Positions 481-54,500 of a DNA stretch of 64,000 nucleotides are shown piece after piece (position 1 is the stretch's first letter; every line of letters starts with the position of its first letter). The notes under the pieces are model-generated. The model worked only from the letters and a program-made list of their open reading frames with translations. It ran no database searches and had not been told where the DNA came from. Origin of the DNA: an uncultured Planctomycetota bacterium (GTDB lineage: Bacteria > Planctomycetota > Planctomycetia > Gemmatales > Gemmataceae). Both the position numbers and the translations under genes were made by a program. The stretch lies in contig CAWATZ010000006.1 of NCBI GenBank assembly GCA_963784995.1, positions 136,853 through 200,852 of the forward strand, read 5' to 3'.

Positions 481-3006
481 TCAACGCCGGAACACGCCCA
501 GCAGGTTGGAAAACTCATCGGTCCACGTGCCGATCTCCGGTCGGGGCCGCAGAGTCCGCCACCGCGAATCCCGCGCCAGGTCCAGGCCGGCCGAGGGGCG
601 GGCCAGGACCACGAAAGTCGAGCGGGTCTTGCCGCGTTTGTCCTCCCCCTCGACGTCCGTGTCATACTGGACCCAGCCGGTCAACCCGGCCTGCTCGGCC
701 TGGTTGGCCAGCACCGGTTCGAGATCCAGATAGCGGTTAGAGACGTTATACACCAACCAGCCCCCCGGCTTCAACTTTTCCAGGTACAGTTTCAGAGCGT
801 CGAAGGTGATCAGATGGATCGGCACCGAATCGGAGCTGAAAGCGTCCAGGAACAGCAGATCGAACGAGTGATCCGGGGCTTCCTGAATCTGTAATCGAGC
901 ATCACCCAGGACCAGGTGCAAGTCCACGCCGCGGGCCCGGCAATCGGCCAGGTAGGTGAAGAAACGCGGGTTGTCGGCCAGCCGGACCACGGCCGGATCG
1001 ATCTCCCAGAAGGTCCACGCCTGGCCGGCCCTGGCATAACTGGCCATCGAGCCGATGCCCAGGCCGGCGACGCCGACCGTTCGCGGCGGGCTCACCTGGT
1101 TGCGCAGGGCAAAGAGCTGGCCGACCGGCCCGGTGCGATGGAAGTAGGTCAGCGGCTCGTCGCGGCGGGCGGGGTCGAGGCTCTGCCAGCCGTGCAGGGT
1201 GGTGCCGTGCAGCAGCCAGCGATACTCCCCGGTCGAATCCTGCTGCACGCACAGCTGGCCGTAGAAGCTGCGTTCGCGCCGCTCGACGTGGTCGCGCAGG
1301 TCGGCGGCGATCCCCGCGGCCAGCAGGACCGCACCGACCGCCAGGCCAAAGCGAACCGGCCGGCCGATCAGGGCAAAGCAAATGCCCACCGGCAAACCCA
1401 CCGCCCACAGCCAGAGGACCCAGGCCAGCAAGTCCTCGTTTTCCCGACCGAGAACGTCCATTTCCAGCTGATTGACGCGCAGGGCCCAGGCGATGATCCC
1501 GGTCAGCAAGCCCAGGGAAACCGGCGCCAGGAAGTCCGCGAGAGCAGGACGGGCTTCCCAGCCCGTCTCAAGGCCGTGGACACCTCGCCACTGGGAAGCC
1601 CGTCCTGCTCTCGCGGACTTCCCCGGGCAAACCAGGCAGGCGACCGTCAGGCCCAGCGGATATTCCAGTGTCCGGGTGAACACCAGCGGCGCCAGCAGGA
1701 CCACCAGCAGTCCGCCCACGACGCCACCCGCCGACATCCACAGGAAATACGCGGTCAGGTGGCGTGGGCCTGGCCGCTGCCGGGCCAGCTCGCCGTGGCA
1801 GACCAGGGCGATCAGGAAGAAGACGGCCAGGTGCAGTTCGATCTCGACGAGCAACGGGGCGCGCAGCCGGAGGACCATGAGGTAAACCAGGACCAGGACC
1901 AGGAGCGGCATCAGTCGGACCGCCCAGAAATGCAGCGAGGCGGCGAAGCGCACGTAGACCAGGATGAAACTGAGCAGGTACAACCCCAGGGGCAACACCC
2001 AGAGCAAGGGAATCGCAGCCACGTCTGTCGTGATGTGGGCCGTCACCGCAGGGAGCAGGGCGGCTGGAACCAGGCTGAGGAGCAGCCAGGAACGAATCGT
2101 GGACCAGGGGAAACGGGCGGGGGGAGGTGCCGAAGGAGCTGGCCGAGCCCCAGGGCGATGCCCGCAACACCCAGGGCGATGCCCTGGGCTATCCTGTTGC
2201 GCCGCTTCGGGGCGAAGACCGGCCTCTCTTTGCCCCGAAGGGGCGCAACAGGATAGCCCAGGGCATCGCCCTGGGTGACCTTGGGGCTCTTGGGTCTCTG
2301 TTCTTCTTGGTCCCTTCCCCCGGATTCCGACCGCCCAGCAGGCCCCAACCAGGAGCAGCAGCACGCCGTAACCCAAGGCCCAGAGCAGCGCTTGCTCGCT
2401 CCGGGTCAGGTTGGGTTCCAGCAGCAGCGGATAGGCGAGCAGGGCCAGCAAGCTGCCGGCGTTGCTGGCGGAATAGAGGAAATACGGATCGCCGGAGTCG
2501 GGATGGCCCGTGCTGGCAAACCAGCGCTGCAGCAGCGGCGCGGTGGTGCTGACCACCGTGAACGGGAGCAGGACCGTGACGGCCAGCAGGGCCAGCAGCC
2601 AGGGCAGCGGGGAGGTGTCGCACGGCGGCAGCCAACCCGCCGGCAGGGCGATGGGCAGGACCAGCAGCGGCAGTGGCAGCAGCACCAGATGCAAAAGCGC
2701 TTGCCGGCGCACTCCGAGCCAGGAAGTGCTGGCGTGAGCGTAGGCATACCCGGCCAGCAGTGCGGCCTGGTAGAATACCATGCAGGTGTTCCAGACGGCC
2801 GGCGATCCCCCCAGCAGCGGCAGCACCAGCCGGGCGAACAGCGGCTGGAGTGTGAAGAGCAGCGTGCTGCTGACAAAGAGCGTCATCGCGTACAGAACCG
2901 GAACCAGGACGTAGCCGGGGCCAGGACGCGACGGGTTCCGGGAGAGTGCGGTTTGCATGATTGGCCTCGGGGCCGGTTTCTTCGCGTTGTGGAACAACCT
3001 CGACAA
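481..3006 (-). CDS. polyamine aminopropyltransferase (spermidine synthase)-like C-terminal domain fused to a large N-terminal polytopic membrane domain
   Basis: 841 aa ORF. The C-terminal third (VGVAGLGIGSMASY...FLDAFSSDSVPIHLITFDALKLYLEKLKPGGWLVYNV) matches the spermidine synthase/SAM-MTase fold. The N-terminal half has many hydrophobic helices. The start may instead be the internal Met at 2958. Two palindromic insertions are read through in-frame (see repeats). Confidence 0.75.
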   Translation of the reverse strand: MSRLFHNAKKPAPRPIMQTALSRNPSRPGPGYVLVPVLYAMTLFVSSTLLFTLQPLFARLVLPLLGGSPAVWNTCMVFYQAALLAGYAYAHASTSWLGVRRQALLHLVLLPLPLLVLPIALPAGWLPPCDTSPLPWLLALLAVTVLLPFTVVSTTAPLLQRWFASTGHPDSGDPYFLYSASNAGSLLALLAYPLLLEPNLTRSEQALLWALGYGVLLLLVGACWAVGIRGKGPRRTETQEPQGHPGRCPGLSCCAPSGQREAGLRPEAAQQDSPGHRPGCCGHRPGARPAPSAPPPARFPWSTIRSWLLLSLVPAALLPAVTAHITTDVAAIPLLWVLPLGLYLLSFILVYVRFAASLHFWAVRLMPLLVLVLVYLMVLRLRAPLLVEIELHLAVFFLIALVCHGELARQRPGPRHLTAYFLWMSAGGVVGGLLVVLLAPLVFTRTLEYPLGLTVACLVCPGKSARAGRASQWRGVHGLETGWEARPALADFLAPVSLGLLTGIIAWALRVNQLEMDVLGRENEDLLAWVLWLWAVGLPVGICFALIGRPVRFGLAVGAVLLAAGIAADLRDHVERRERSFYGQLCVQQDSTGEYRWLLHGTTLHGWQSLDPARRDEPLTYFHRTGPVGQLFALRNQVSPPRTVGVAGLGIGSMASYARAGQAWTFWEIDPAVVRLADNPRFFTYLADCRARGVDLHLVLGDARLQIQEAPDHSFDLLFLDAFSSDSVPIHLITFDALKLYLEKLKPGGWLVYNVSNRYLDLEPVLANQAEQAGLTGWVQYDTDVEGEDKRGKTRSTFVVLARPSAGLDLARDSRWRTLRPRPEIGTWTDEFSNLLGVFRR
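1530..1622. repeat. intragenic hairpin element: 32-nt perfect inverted repeat, 28-nt loop, 93 nt total (31 codons), in-frame inside the 481..3006 CDS
   Basis: Arm 1 is ggaagtccgcgagagcaggacgggcttcccag at 1530-1561. Its exact reverse complement ctgggaagcccgtcctgctctcgcggacttcc is at 1591-1622. Confidence 0.85.
2148..2275. repeat. intragenic hairpin element: roughly 44-nt near-perfect inverted repeat plus a partial direct repeat of cccagggcgatgcc, inside the 481..3006 CDS
   Basis: cccagggcgatgccctgggctatcctgttgcgccgcttcggggc (2170-2213) pairs with gccccgaaggggcgcaacaggatagcccagggcatcgccctggg (2232-2275). The extra cccagggcgatgcc copy is at 2148-2161. Confidence 0.85.
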
Positions 3007-4588: not shown

Positions 4589-5914
4589 CCATCCCATTCC
4601 CCGGGAGTTCGTGAGCTAAGATTATTTCAGGCCGGACAAGAAACAGGCCAGAGAAGAAACCGCTTCGAGATCTCGGGGGAGGGGAAGGCCACGATGGGCA
4701 AGAGGCTGACGGCGACGTTCCTGGTAGCGCTGGTGTTGCTGCTGGGCAATGCGCTGGTGTCCTTCTGGAACGTCACCCGGGTGGTGGACCACGATCACCG
4801 GGTCGCGCACACCCACGAGGTCCTTGCCCAGTTGCGAGGGATCACGTCCGCCCTGTACGACGCCGAGGCCGGCCTGAGCAGCCATTTCCTGATGGGACGG
4901 GCCGAATCCCTCCGCCCCTGCGAGTTTGCCTTTGAGCGCGTGCCGGAGGCGCTGGCGAACCTGGAAAGCATGACGGCCGACAATCGGCGCAGCAGCAGCG
5001 CGTCCGCCGGCTCGGCCCTCTGATCCAGGAGCAGTTCGCGTTGATGCGGCAAATGATTGCTTTGCGCGCGAACCGCGGCCAGGGAGGCCGGGAGGCCCTG
5101 GCCCTGCGCGGACCGGGAAGGCGCAGACCCTCTCGCAAGAGATCCGCAGGCTGCTGGCCATGATGGAAGACGAGGAGAACCAGTTGCTGCGCCAGCGCGT
5201 TCCGCAGGCCCGGACCAGCACCCGGCTGACGTTCTTGACTTTGCTTGCCGCCACCATCCTGGGAGTCGCCCTGCTGGGCTTCGTCGCCCTGCTGACCTGG
5301 CGCGGCATCCACGATCGCCGGCGCGCCGAGGAGGAGCTGCGCCGCGGCCGGGACGAACTGGAGGTCCGGGTCGGAGAGCGCACGCTGGAACTGGCGTCGG
5401 CCAACGTGCGGCTGCTGCGGGAAATCGAGGAGCGCCGCCGGGCCGAGCTGGCCCTGCGAGAAGCCAAGGAAACCGCCGAGGCGGCCAGTCGGGTCAAGAG
5501 CGAGTTCCTGGCCAGCATGAGTCATGAGATCCGCACGCCCATGAACGGCATTCTCGGCATGGTGGAAGTGCTGCTGGATACGGACATCACGGTTGAGCAA
5601 CGCGAGCACCTCGCCATGATCCAGACTTCCGCGGAAGCCCTGCTGGCGATGATCGACGACCTGCTGGATTTCGCGAAGATTGAGGCGGGCAAGGTTGACC
5701 TCGACCCGATCGCCTTCCATCTCCGCGAGACCCTGGGCGATACCCTGAAACTGCTGGAAGTGCGCGCCGCAAGAAGGGACTCTGTCTGGCCTGCCGCATT
5801 CAGCCGGACGTTCCCGAAACCCTGGTGGGCGACGCTGGCCGGCTCCGCCAGGTCCTCATCAACCTGGTGGGCAACGCCATCAAGTTCACCGAGAGGGGCG
5901 AAGTGTTCGTGGTC

Positions 5915-5972
5915 GCAGGACAGGCAGCCTTGCCTGTCCTGGGCGTTGGGACAGGCAAGGCTGCCTGTCCTG
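5915..5972. repeat. intragenic double hairpin (ggacaggcagccttgcctgtcc and its reverse complement ggacaggcaaggctgcctgtcc) in-frame in the histidine kinase
   Basis: Direct reading of 5915-5972. Encodes [21 protein letters not shown], between the N-box and G1 box of the HATPase domain. Confidence 0.8.
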
Positions 5973-6220
5973 CGGGAGTGGAGCTCCATTTTGCCGTCTG
6001 CGACACGGGCATTGGCATCCCGACCGACCGGCAGCGCGTGATCTTCGACCCGTTCACCCAGGCCGACGGCTCGGTGACGCGCCGCTACGGCGGCACCGGA
6101 CTGGGCCTGTCCATCTCCTCGCGCCTGGTCGAACTGATGGGAGGTCGGATCTGGGTGGAAAGCGAAGTGGGCCAGGGCAGCACTTTCCACTTCACCGCGT
6201 GCTTTGCTCGGTGCCCCTCG

Positions 6221-6348
6221 GAAGATGACAAGGTGACAAGGTGGCAAGGTGACAAGGTGACAAAGACCGAAGAGCCAGAACTGGGGGCTTCCTCCGCGGC
6301 TTCTTCTGTCACCTTGTCACCTTGTCACCTTGTCACCTTATCATCTTC
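6221..6348. repeat. intragenic 128-nt palindrome built from 8-mer tandem repeats (gacaaggt x5 on one arm, accttgtc x4 on the other), in-frame between the HATPase and receiver domains
   Basis: gaagatgacaaggtgacaaggtggcaaggtgacaaggtgacaaag ... tctgtcaccttgtcaccttgtcaccttgtcaccttatcatcttc. Encodes EDDKVTRWQGDKVTKTEEPELGASSAASSVTLSPCHLVTLSSSD. Confidence 0.85.
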
Positions 6349-7430
6349 AGACGGGCTGCGAATCCTGGTCGCGGAAGATAACGCGATCAATCAGGTGGTG
6401 GCCCGGCAAATGCTGGAGAAGCAAGGCCATCAGGTCGAAGTGGCCAGCAACGGCAAGGAGGCCCTGGCCGCACTGGAACGGCAATCCTTCGATCTGGTGC
6501 TGATGGACGTGCAGATGCCGGAAATGAGCGGCTTCGACGTGACCGCCGCCATCCGGGCCCGGGAGAATGGGAGCGGGCGGCGCCAGCCGATCATCGCCCT
6601 GACCGCCCATGCCATGAAGGGCGACCGGGAGCGGTGTCTGGAAGCGGGCATGGACGGCTACCTCTCCAAGCCGATCCAGGCGTGCGAACTCTCCCGGGCC
6701 ATTGCCCTGGTGGTCGGCGGGAAGCAGCAAGTCCCCGGGAGTGCCAGGCCGGTTCGCCCTGACCCGGCAGCTGACGCAGCCGGGCACCCGCTTGCGGGTC
6801 TGCCACCGGCCGGGCGGAACACCCACGTCCTGGACCGCGCCGCCACTCTGGAGCGCTACCGTGGCGACCTCTCCTTTGTCCAGACCCTCGCGTCCCTGCT
6901 TGTCGAGGAGTCTCTCCGCTCCCTGGCGGAGATGCGGGATGCCCTCCGGGGTAAGGAAGCCGACCGGTTGGGGCAGGTGGCGCACAAGTTCGTCGGCGCC
7001 GTGAGCAGCTTCGTCGCCCCGGAGGCAACCGAGGCGGTCCGGCAACTCGAAGCCCGGGCCAAGGCGGGAGACTTGCCAGAGGCGGGCCAGGCGCTGGCAA
7101 CCTTGGAAGTAACCCTGGCCCGGCTGACCGCTGCCCTGGGTGAGCTGCAACAAGGGCCCGAACGCGTTGGCGCGGGCTGAGTTCGAGGACCACTCCTGTC
7201 GATGAACTGGAGTCGGCGGCACAGGAGTCCCACCTGACAGCCGAGCAGTTGCAACGGCTCTATGAAACGGTGTGCGGTGAATCGGAGACTGGAGCCGCAG
7301 GCGATCAGAGGGATAGCACACTTCGTCTCCGCCCGATGTTGCTGGAGATCCTGGTGCGATTGTTCGGCAAGGCTCCCGGCAGTGACCAACGCCAGGGACA
7401 GTCGTGACGTGCAGTCAGCGGAGAGTTTCA

Positions 7431-11380: not shown

Positions 11381-11412
11381 GCGATCCTCGCAAAACAGTC
11401 CGGACCAGAGCC

Positions 11413-11496
11413 GACGAGCCGCCGCTTCGATTTATCGTTTCGCGTTCGGCCACAAGTCGGCGAACGCGAAACGATAAATCGAAGCGGCGGCTCGTC
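11413..11496. repeat. REP-like intergenic palindrome, family 1 (core cgatttatcgtttcgcgttcg...cgaacgcgaaacgataaatcg), copy 1 of 3
   Basis: 36-nt perfect arms gacgagccgccgcttcgatttatcgtttcgcgttcg / cgaacgcgaaacgataaatcgaagcggcggctcgtc. Related copies at 45914..45962 and 56171..56257. Confidence 0.9.
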
Positions 11497-11501
11497 GGAC
11501 A

Positions 11502-15160: not shown

Positions 15161-15359
15161 GAACACCTCAACAGATTTACGACCCCTCCAGCCCTGGCTG
15201 GCCGTGCAGGCACGGTTGTCCGGCAGGTGAAGGAGGTCACCAGCTAGAGGAAGAAGCAAGAACTTTTTTTCTTTTCTCCCGTCTAGCCAATGACCTGCTT
15301 CACCTGCCGGACAACCGTGCCTGCACGGCCAGCCAGGGCTGCTGGGGCCGGAGAAGCGG

Positions 15360-18452: not shown

Positions 18453-18506
18453 CGGGCCGACGGCCGCGCACAGCGCCATGCGGCGGAGCGTGCGGCCGTC
18501 GGCCCG
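18453..18506 (+). terminator. GC-rich hairpin (16-18 bp stem) about 50 nt downstream of the 17095..18402 gene
   Basis: cgggccgacggccgcgca ... tgcggccgtcggcccg. Confidence 0.45.
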
Positions 18507-30687: not shown

Positions 30688-30776
30688 GGCCGAGCCGCGC
30701 ACGCAGCGCAGCGGAGTAAGCGGTGCGGGAGCCTGCAGGGCCGCTTACTCCGCTGCGCTGCGTGCGCGGCTCGGCC
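30688..30776. repeat. 36-bp perfect inverted repeat (ggccgagccgcgcacgcagcgcagcggagtaagcgg / ccgcttactccgctgcgctgcgtgcgcggctcggcc) with 17-nt loop, between the kinase gene and the MVP gene
   Basis: Direct reading. Possible terminator/insulator or REP-like element. Confidence 0.8.
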
Positions 30777-30879
30777 TTTCTTCTCCGGCGCAGGCCGGGG
30801 ACACAGCAGAAAGCCCACGCATGTCCTGCGTTCCCATACTGTCTCCTTTCTCTCTCCCCAACAACTGGAGGAAGTTCCA

Positions 30880-45834: not shown

Positions 45835-45859
45835 GGTCCTGTCTCCGTTTCGGGCTTTC

Positions 45860-46010
45860 TTTCTCCCCTCTCCCCTTGAGGGAGAGGGGGTGGGGTGAGG
45901 GGAAGAGCCTGGCTGATTTATCGTTTCGCACTGATCCAGGTGAGCGCGAAACGATAAATCGAAGACAACCCTTCACCCCCAAACCCTCTCCCTCAAGGGG
46001 AGAGGGGAGA
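45860..46010. repeat. composite nested palindrome: CCCTCTCCC hairpin, family-1 REP core (tgatttatcgtttcgcac...gcgcgaaacgataaatcga), CCCTCTCCC hairpin
   Basis: 45866-45890 cccctctccccttgagggagagggg; 45914-45962 REP core; 45984-46007 ccctctccctcaaggggagaggg. Lies between the paralogue-3 stop and the paralogue-2 start. Confidence 0.85.
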
Positions 46011-46020
46011 AGGATCTCCG

Positions 46021-50398: not shown

Positions 50399-50559
50399 CT
50401 TTTGCCGATTTGGAGTGCGGCAGTAGCTTTGCTCTGCCGCTTTTGTTTCTTCTGTTGGTTTTTGTTTCTTGGACTGGCCTAACAAGGGAAAAGCAAAAAC
50501 AAAAGACCAAACAAAAGCGGCAGAGCAAAGCTACTGCCGCACTCCATAATCGGCAAAAG
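50399..50559. promoter_or_regulatory. AT-rich 160-bp nested palindrome (about 47-bp near-perfect outer stem, each arm containing its own gcggcag...ctgccgc hairpin), 200-360 bp upstream of the gntR operon start
   Basis: tttgccgatttggagtgcggcagtagctttgctctgccgcttttgtt pairs with aacaaaagcggcagagcaaagctactgccgcactccataatcggcaaa. Local GC is far below the window average, with ttttgtttt runs. Confidence 0.45.
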
Positions 50560-54422: not shown

Positions 54423-54500
54423 GAAATGGCGAGCGGCGCGGCGTCAGCCCGCCGGTAAGGGCTTCCTACCGGCGGGCTGACGCCGCGCCGCTCGCCATTC
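54423..54500. repeat. family-3 palindrome (about 37-bp arms, gaaatggcgagcggcgcggcgtcagcccgccggtaagg / ccttaccggcgggctgacgccgcgccgctcgccatt); degenerate relative at 36863..36966
   Basis: Direct reading. Shares ggcgagcggcRcggcgtcagcccgc with the 36863 copy. Confidence 0.8.

Follow-up and report, generated by a model that had tools for sequence, protein, structure and literature searches.

A read-through palindrome of Acido-Lenti-1-like repeat units in a membrane protein gene of an uncultured planctomycete

How does a conserved membrane protein gene come to carry a long, near-perfect palindrome within its reading frame, and what is this palindrome? The question is raised by a 64,000-nucleotide (nt) stretch of DNA from an uncultured member of the Planctomycetota (hereafter the window). 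In this stretch, a gene of the fused major facilitator superfamily (MFS)/spermidine-synthase family contains a palindrome at positions 2168-2277, which is translated together with the rest of the protein. We suggest that the palindrome is probably a dispersed, non-autonomous repeat that is tolerated in a flexible loop of the protein. It would be of the type known as repetitive extragenic palindromes (REP), bacterial interspersed mosaic elements (BIME) or REP doublets forming hairpins (REPIN), and would resemble the Rickettsia palindromic elements (RPE), which were reportedly described by Ogata et al. in 2000.

A repeat search of the window gives two palindrome arms of 51 nt each (2168-2218 and 2227-2277). 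They are 96% complementary, differ at two positions and enclose an 8-nt loop. The initial annotation had described near-perfect arms of about 44 nt and a partial extra copy of an arm sequence. Both are present, the arms being longer than was claimed, and the extra copy is exact over the 15 nt CCCAGGGCGATGCCC, with 2149-2163 identical to 2170-2184 at a spacing of 21 nt. The layout is common to both arms and comprises hairpin A, the tag CTA, the linker TCCTGTTGC and hairpin B, GCC(C/G)C-TTC-GGGGC. The units converge, with their tags and B hairpins pointing inward. The ends of the element are placed at A (2169) and T (2276), since an 'A' stands before CCCAGGGC in nearly all related units. The host gene and the parts of the element are as follows, with bit scores for the Rfam family RF01687 and for our own model R1, both introduced below.

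481-2958, minus strand: host gene, coding for a membrane protein of the fused MFS/spermidine-synthase family, 825 amino acids (aa) as called (P0001)
2168-2277: palindrome in perfect register, extending one base beyond the element on either side
2169-2276: the insert as a whole, 108 nt (36 codons), in which two repeat units form an inverted (convergent) dimer
2170-2214, plus strand: left repeat unit, Acido-Lenti-1-like (RF01687, 28.5 bits; R1, 30.6 bits, E-value 6.6e-6)
2170-2177/2181-2188: hairpin A of the left unit, CCCAGGGC-GAT-GCCCTGGG
2189-2191: CTA tag of the left unit, after which the linker runs to 2200
2201-2205/2209-2213: hairpin B of the left unit, with one G.G mismatch
2215-2230: dimer centre, 4 extra paired bases per side (AAGA/TCTT) around the 8-nt apical loop 2219-2226
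2231-2275, minus strand: right repeat unit, Acido-Lenti-1 (RF01687, 40.1 bits; R1, 41.1 bits)
2232-2236/2240-2244: hairpin B of the right unit, GCCCC-GAA-GGGGC
2254-2256: TAG tag of the right unit
2257-2264/2268-2275: hairpin A of the right unit
2149-2169, plus strand: imperfect direct repeat, 21 nt or 7 codons long, of the element's left end, CCCAGGGCGATGCC followed by CGCAACA
2144-2153 (GAGCCCCAGG), pairing with 2279-2289 (CCTTGGGGCTC): outer complementarity of about 10 bp, seen in the RNA and DNA folds

The CGCAACA of the 21-nt duplicate is the reverse complement of the linker TGTTGCG. The outer complementarity lies outside the shared element and is absent from the second copy of the dimer described below (P0121). 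It may be a short target-site palindrome or may have arisen by chance.

The symmetry of the element itself is not accidental. A 34-nt arm pattern finds just these two sites in the window and none in 100 shuffles. Folding of the mRNA, for which the initial annotation had asked, gives a very stable hairpin. The minus strand of 2140-2300, i.e., the mRNA strand, folds at -131.8 kcal/mol compared with -72.2 +/- 4.2 kcal/mol for shuffles (z = -14.3), and the same segment folded as DNA has a z of -16.9. Thus, a chance origin of the palindrome is excluded.

The arms belong to a described family. The sole gathering-level Rfam match in the window is RF01687, Acido-Lenti-1, which runs from 2275 to 2231 on the minus strand and scores 40.1 bits, where the gathering score is 37. 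The left arm, from 2170 to 2214 on the plus strand, remains under this score at 28.5 bits because of the single G.G mismatch in hairpin B. In both arms the two hairpins and the GGCUA and CG linker positions align to the model. By this alignment, each arm is one Acido-Lenti-1 unit, a family that the initial annotation overlooked. Our own model, R1, was built anew from a 47-sequence subset of the published seed; with its filters off, it matches just these two units in the 64 kb. Both hairpins covary in this seed subset, where 95.3% of the cells are paired and 12 of the 13 pairs are altered on both sides. Rfam matches to microRNA families also appeared in E-value scans and were disregarded, as they are generic long-hairpin matches far below the gathering scores.

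Acido-Lenti-1 was first reported as a motif from Acidobacteria and Lentisphaerae, a probable non-coding RNA of unknown function that is sometimes found near group II introns (Weinberg 2010, PMC2864571). The seed from that study is a multi-copy repeat in few genomes (Lentisphaera, Koribacter and Rhodopirellula baltica), often in arrays. It already holds a planctomycete, with two R. baltica copies. The units in the window share with the family the 8-bp hairpin, the GGCUA, the linker of about 9 nt with U.U..CG, and the 5-bp hairpin with a UUC-type loop. They differ from the model in that the loop of hairpin A has 3 nt rather than 4 nt, and in that the left arm is below threshold. They also differ from the family as described, since they form one palindrome within a translated protein-coding gene. 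Acido-Lenti-1 is filed as a stand-alone small RNA, and the position of this copy within a coding sequence (CDS) argues against a stand-alone gene here.

The hairpins also give a hint as to which strand is structured. Their non-Watson-Crick pairs, read on the Rfam strand, are A.C more often than G.U, with 23 versus 6 in the seed subset and 11 versus 2 in the 92 R1 matches considered below, though these counts are not phylogenetically independent. An A.C bias on the Rfam strand means G.U or G.T on the opposite strand, which, like GTAG REPs, has its TAG on the 5' side of hairpin A. It may thus be this opposite strand that takes up the structure, in the form of RNA or of single-stranded DNA.

We next consider the gene in which the element lies. 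The open reading frame (ORF) at 481-3006 on the minus strand has a third-position G+C content of 0.82 and 6784 database homologues, whose records carry the name 'fused MFS/spermidine synthase'. P0001 (825 aa) is 100% identical to the window protein and sets the start at 2958. Among Pfam families, the host protein has a weak C-terminal methyltransferase match and no other. The divergent beta-lactamase/DUF3471 neighbour is kept in four related contigs, and planctomycete PSCyt/PSD1 genes are present on one of them. The initial annotation was right that the element is read through, but not about the strand and frame, as the peptide that it quoted (EPQGDARNTQGDALGYPVAPLRG...) belongs to the plus strand and the gene is on the minus strand. 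The true frame reads ...EPQG-HPGRCPGLSCCAPSGQREAGLRPEAAQQDSPGHRPG-CCGHRPG..., with no stop and no frameshift. In this frame the element encodes EPQGHPGRCPGLSCCAPSGQREAGLRPEAAQQDSPGHRPGCCGHRPG, at about residues 228-263 of the host protein. It adds 36 residues, with 7 more from the 21-nt duplicate, and these are rich in Pro, Gly, Arg and Cys.

Four of the six frames are open across the element. On each strand two are open and the third is stopped at the TAG/CTA tag (2254-2256 and 2189-2191), and because the element is palindromic, both strands offer the same three kinds of frame. Four open frames are unremarkable, since by our own estimate about half would be open by chance over 36 codons at about 70% GC. 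Spurious ORFs span the palindrome in non-coding frames, i.e., 2127-2552 (plus strand, 141 aa) and 2043-2348 (minus strand, 101 aa).

Is the element a property of the protein family or an addition to it? We aligned the window protein with 12 homologues of 50-79% identity, typically about 740 aa long. All 12 are without the element, and the alignment gap lies exactly at the element. The window protein has two private segments, each coinciding with one palindrome: the element itself and a second palindrome in the same gene, which is treated below. Both segments have no conserved columns and differ in length in every aligned sequence. From this alignment, each palindrome was inserted in this lineage alone, at a position that is gapped and poorly conserved. 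A simple hydropathy scan places the element within a hydrophilic loop between the hydrophobic segments 194-212 and 292-310, with about six hydrophobic stretches upstream. Thus, the insertion site is probably the long central MFS loop between transmembrane segments 6 and 7, the topology being drawn from hydropathy.

The closest orthologue, P0002 (79% identity; locus L001 of the metagenome-assembled genome GCA_037024435.1), has neither palindrome, but the corresponding loop contains a different one in frame, 40 nt long (L001:1555-1594), which is built as GATTTATCGTTTCGCG-8-CGCGAAACGATAAATC and encodes TDLSFRAEERETIN. Since different palindromes occupy the same loop in two lineages, this loop has accepted palindromic repeats independently twice. 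The 16-nt core GATTTATCGTTTCGCG of the L001 palindrome recurs in an intergenic palindrome of the window at 11411-11498. Judged by this common core, the GATTTATCGTTTCGCG palindromes are a second dispersed palindrome family in both genomes. The orthologous loci L093-L095 (62% identity) have no Acido-Lenti-1 unit in 66 kb, and there the host gene is without a palindrome.

The units are dispersed across other genomes. The hairpin-A pattern occurs in 69 IMG/VR stretches, many of them on contigs of about 100 kb from one sample. In 65 of these loci we find 92 units with R1, among which are 10 divergent and 2 tandem pairs but no convergent one. The IMG/VR loci L019-L087 (for example, L027:12953-13142 and L074:314-509) carry an identical GC-rich hairpin A and come mostly from sample 3300045988. 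An extra B-type hairpin usually stands ahead of the IMG/VR units, whose divergent pairs are often about 106 nt apart. A 23-mer of the arm is found in five JGI metagenome contigs with one unit each, one of which (L088) shares 35 identical bases. These JGI units are in REP-like positions, e.g., just 3' of a convergent gene end. In addition, blastn finds 17 places on two plasmids of Ca. Thiodictyon syntrophicum, 15 of them on pTs485, and one intergenic pair on a Thiodictyon plasmid is convergent, with a 62-nt spacer, among classical GTAG REPs. On pTs485 (L096, 418028-430073) the intergenic regions are packed with Acido-Lenti-1-like units beside GTAG REPs (CGTAGGGTGGACAAGCG...GTCCACC), and IS66 and integrase genes are near these units. 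The tags among the relatives are GTAG, ATAG, CTAG and TTAG. Related units are thus mostly intergenic, single or in pairs of opposite (divergent) orientation. A search with the 18-mer GGGCTATCCTGTTGCGCC across GTDB representative genomes gave 17 single matches in unrelated taxa, which equals the chance expectation, and a blastn search of phage GenBank records gave no match.

Protein databases add two further convergent dimers. When the + frame peptide was run with HMMER against all 1.84 billion representatives, 10 matches were found, all of which are spurious ORFs over unit arrays whose peptides read ...APKGQKRIAQGIALG... or ...TQGVALGYRIAPLRG...; one of the ten, P0123, has a convergent dimer. 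A protein word-index search with the concatenated element peptides of three frames found P0121 alone, and one with a 45-aa peptide of the host frame retrieved no record, P0001 itself included, so that it says nothing either way. P0121, an unrelated ORF of 94 aa, encodes PRAMPWAILLRPFGAK-DKVF-RPEGAQQDSPGHRPG, i.e., the same arms in two other frames around a shorter and different loop. To judge by these peptides, the dimer occurs a second time in P0121, at an unrelated locus. The P0121 arms keep an intact hairpin B, so the G.G mismatch in the window is a private substitution.

Taken together, the element has REP-like traits, namely a TAG tag adjoining a short hairpin, inverted dimers, and dispersal with variable spacers. 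REP, BIME and REPIN sequences likewise combine a short hairpin with a TAG, form foldable inverted dimers and are dispersed in multiple copies (Di Nocera et al. 2013, PMC3733652; Bertels & Rainey 2011, PMC3116915). In the nomenclature of the former study, the window element is a tail-tail homodimer with a structured spacer. As expected of a REP dimer, its arms are long (51 nt) and 96% complementary, with fold z values of about -14 and -17. A TAG is beside hairpin A in both arms, but the fourth base is A (ATAG). It is unlike GTAG REPs in this ATAG tag, in its second conserved hairpin and in its conserved linker. Though REPs are extragenic and the window copy is inside a conserved CDS, intragenic REPs are documented exceptions. 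In-frame intragenic GTAG-REP dimers encode 20-30 aa, sometimes occur twice in one gene, and are most numerous in Opitutus terrae, a bacterium of the Planctomycetes-Verrucomicrobia-Chlamydiae group; the authors themselves draw the parallel with the RPEs of Rickettsia (PMC3733652). The likeness of the window element to RPEs is that a palindromic repeat of about 100-150 nt lies in frame in a functional gene and adds a peptide at a tolerant position. The sequence is unrelated, the tag is TAG and not CGTC (RPE-4 and RPE-6), and the organism is a planctomycete and not Rickettsia, so that the likeness is functional alone.

We suggest the following sequence of events. The unit consists of the 8-bp hairpin A, the conserved CTA (= TAG) tag, the linker of about 9 nt and the 5-bp hairpin B. 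With two such units facing each other, either DNA strand, or the mRNA, can fold into a single hairpin with a 51-bp stem. This dimer would have landed in, or been built within, the long variable loop of the fused MFS/spermidine-synthase gene. The reading frame would have been kept because the insert is 108 nt long and open in four of the six frames, and because the loop is not conserved. Tolerance would be as for the Rickettsia RPEs and the intragenic REP dimers, and the element would be selfish and neutral for its host. Perhaps it moves as single-stranded hairpin DNA by means of a REP-associated (Y1/HUH) transposase or a similar enzyme, though we are rather doubtful about this step, which is the weakest.

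Several observations weigh against this account. No transposase could be linked to the element. A crude IS200-TnpA probe of low sensitivity found nothing below E = 1 in the window and 96 loci. For 40 window ORFs, 77 Pfam families matched, and the 25 of them that were listed do not include Y1_Tnp. REP-associated tyrosine transposases are usually single-copy, and a 64-kb window is no fair test of their presence. The window contains one copy of the element, and its tag is ATAG and not GTAG. The second hairpin and the conserved linker are foreign to classical REPs. Furthermore, the tight convergent homodimer occurs 0 times among the 92 related units, which include 10 divergent pairs, and it may be that the dimer formed locally and did not move as a unit. 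Three other candidates were rejected: a CRISPR-like array, as there is no repeat-spacer array; an intein, as there are no intein motifs; and a programmed frameshift signal, as the frame is unchanged.

The possibility of a local origin leads to the most serious rival, in which the palindrome was made in situ. A single Acido-Lenti-1 unit would have gained its inverted copy by template switching or fold-back repair, and the same type of event would have produced the 21-nt duplicate. The arms are 96% identical, and the relatives are mostly monomers or divergent pairs, with no convergent pair among the 92 matches. The duplicate itself (2149-2169) is a patchwork of half of hairpin A and the reverse complement of the linker heptamer, which resembles a slippage or template-switch product. 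Nevertheless, we consider this origin unlikely, because a second dimer in an unrelated ORF, P0121, agrees with the window copy in its arms and arm-proximal centre (AAAG...TCTTC), and convergent pairs also occur on the Thiodictyon plasmid and in P0123. The palindrome also stops where the units stop, whereas an inverted duplication made in situ would often continue into the host sequence. An RNA-level role seems less probable still. Here the element would be an Acido-Lenti-1 small RNA, or the 51-bp-stem hairpin in the mRNA would control the gene through RNase III, ribosome pausing or stability. Rfam and Weinberg 2010 (PMC2864571) do list the motif, which covaries, as a probable RNA, but covariation of the hairpins is equally expected of a single-stranded DNA substrate, and the mismatch asymmetry favours the strand opposite to that of Rfam. 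The stability of the mRNA strand (-131.8 kcal/mol, z = -14.3) fits such a role, and RNase III could plausibly cut a perfect duplex of this length, by inference from established knowledge. Against it, the units are found in either orientation with respect to genes; some form arrays, some lie within ORFs, and others are on plasmids or viral contigs. The closest orthologues also do without the element. Since the folding predicts the 51-bp-stem hairpin in the mRNA too, it could plausibly act there as an RNase III substrate or a translational obstacle.

Two further explanations have very little in their favour. A classical miniature inverted-repeat transposable element (MITE) would be a deletion derivative of a DDE-type insertion sequence (IS), with the whole palindrome as its terminal inverted repeats. 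The size of about 110 nt, the full-length inverted symmetry and the want of coding capacity agree with this, and the MITEs Correia/NEMIS and ERIC are likewise small, non-coding and inverted in symmetry, and MITEs are sometimes co-transcribed and processed by RNase III. A MITE is nonetheless highly improbable. This is because there is no target-site duplication at 2168-2277 or 2169-2276 (the flanks are GCAA/ACCT or AACA/TGAC), and the 21-nt repeat copies an end of the element itself and lies on one side only. In addition, the arms are independent repeat units of a known two-hairpin type that is usually solitary, and no related or parental IS was seen. Finally, chimeric reads can yield palindromes, but an assembly or sequencing artefact is hardly credible here. 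As a natural repeat, the arm recurs on plasmids and in independent metagenomes, where up to 35 bases are identical, and the dimer is found again in a separate protein record, P0121. The element is internal, short and frame-preserving in a conserved gene, its arms differ at two positions, and the window has about ten other unrelated palindromes. Thus, we favour the reading of the element as a REP-like repeat that is tolerated in the loop.

Is the host gene then a preferred target? The initial annotation had noted a second palindrome of unrelated sequence in the same CDS, and from the two it proposed that the gene is a hotspot or tolerant of insertions. The second palindrome is there:

1530-1622: other in-frame palindrome of the host gene, 32-nt arms, 100% complementary

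The covariance model that matches both arms of the element does not match at 1530-1622, which bears out that the two are unrelated. However, the window has about 11 long palindromes of unrelated sequence, or about 1 per 6 kb, and its exact inverted repeats of at least 16 nt form 15 loci compared with a mean of 1.6 in simulations. Four of the 11 palindromes are in frame within a CDS, two in the host gene and two in a hybrid histidine kinase. By our own arithmetic, two palindromes in one 2.5-kb gene have a Poisson p of about 0.07, which is not significant, and the histidine-kinase gene (5.2-7.2 kb) also has two. A hotspot is not shown. Tolerance is the better-supported half of the proposal, given the variable hydrophilic loop and the L001 palindrome in the same loop. 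The evidence thus favours tolerance of particular loops or linkers over targeting of the host gene.

The related contigs L093-L095 have fewer long palindromes than the window. The hybrid histidine kinase (4974-7180, plus strand) is spread over two overlapping ORFs, 4974-6038 with HisKA and 5699-7177 with HATPase_c, Response_reg and Hpt. It appears to be split by a frameshift, which would reflect a pseudogene or a sequencing error. Its in-frame palindromes are at 5914-5974 and at 6208-6361, the arms of the latter being arrays of the octamer GGTGACAA. The window has other long palindromes too, most of them intergenic and none related in sequence to another, at 15180-15350, 50411-50546, 45858-46014, 54425-54499, 18453-18506 and 30688-30776. 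The last of these is perfect, with 36-nt arms, and is located at the 5' end of a gene for a bacterial major vault protein homologue (30720-33119, plus strand; Pfam MVP_shoulder, 1.4e-43, with Vault, Vault_2 and Vault_3).

The element is thus of a described family, RF01687, and behaves like the known intragenic REP dimers and RPEs. It is no new kind of system, but it adds a case of palindromic repeats tolerated inside genes that is neither from Rickettsia nor from proteobacteria. It also extends Acido-Lenti-1 to a new context, i.e., an in-frame intragenic palindromic dimer in a planctomycete. These findings explain an odd segment of 36-43 residues, rich in Pro, Gly, Arg and Cys, in a conserved membrane protein. 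They also explain many spurious short ORFs in the databases, 'hypothetical proteins' with ...AQGxALG... or ...SPGxRPG... peptides. What is mildly novel is the recasting of Acido-Lenti-1 as a REP-like DNA repeat, together with the palindrome load of this genome, which is unusually dense and diverse, and the findings suggest that this small-RNA family of Rfam is better understood as such a repeat. In its widest form, which we put forward tentatively as a serious possibility, Acido-Lenti-1 may be no RNA gene. It may instead be a unit of a very widespread REP/REPIN-like mobile DNA, found in Planctomycetota, Acidobacteria, Lentisphaerae, a gammaproteobacterial megaplasmid and IMG/VR contigs of about 100 kb, with its active strand opposite to that of Rfam. 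In this planctomycete, it may have colonised genes in frame along with a dozen unrelated palindrome families, and may thereby remodel the loops of membrane and signalling proteins.

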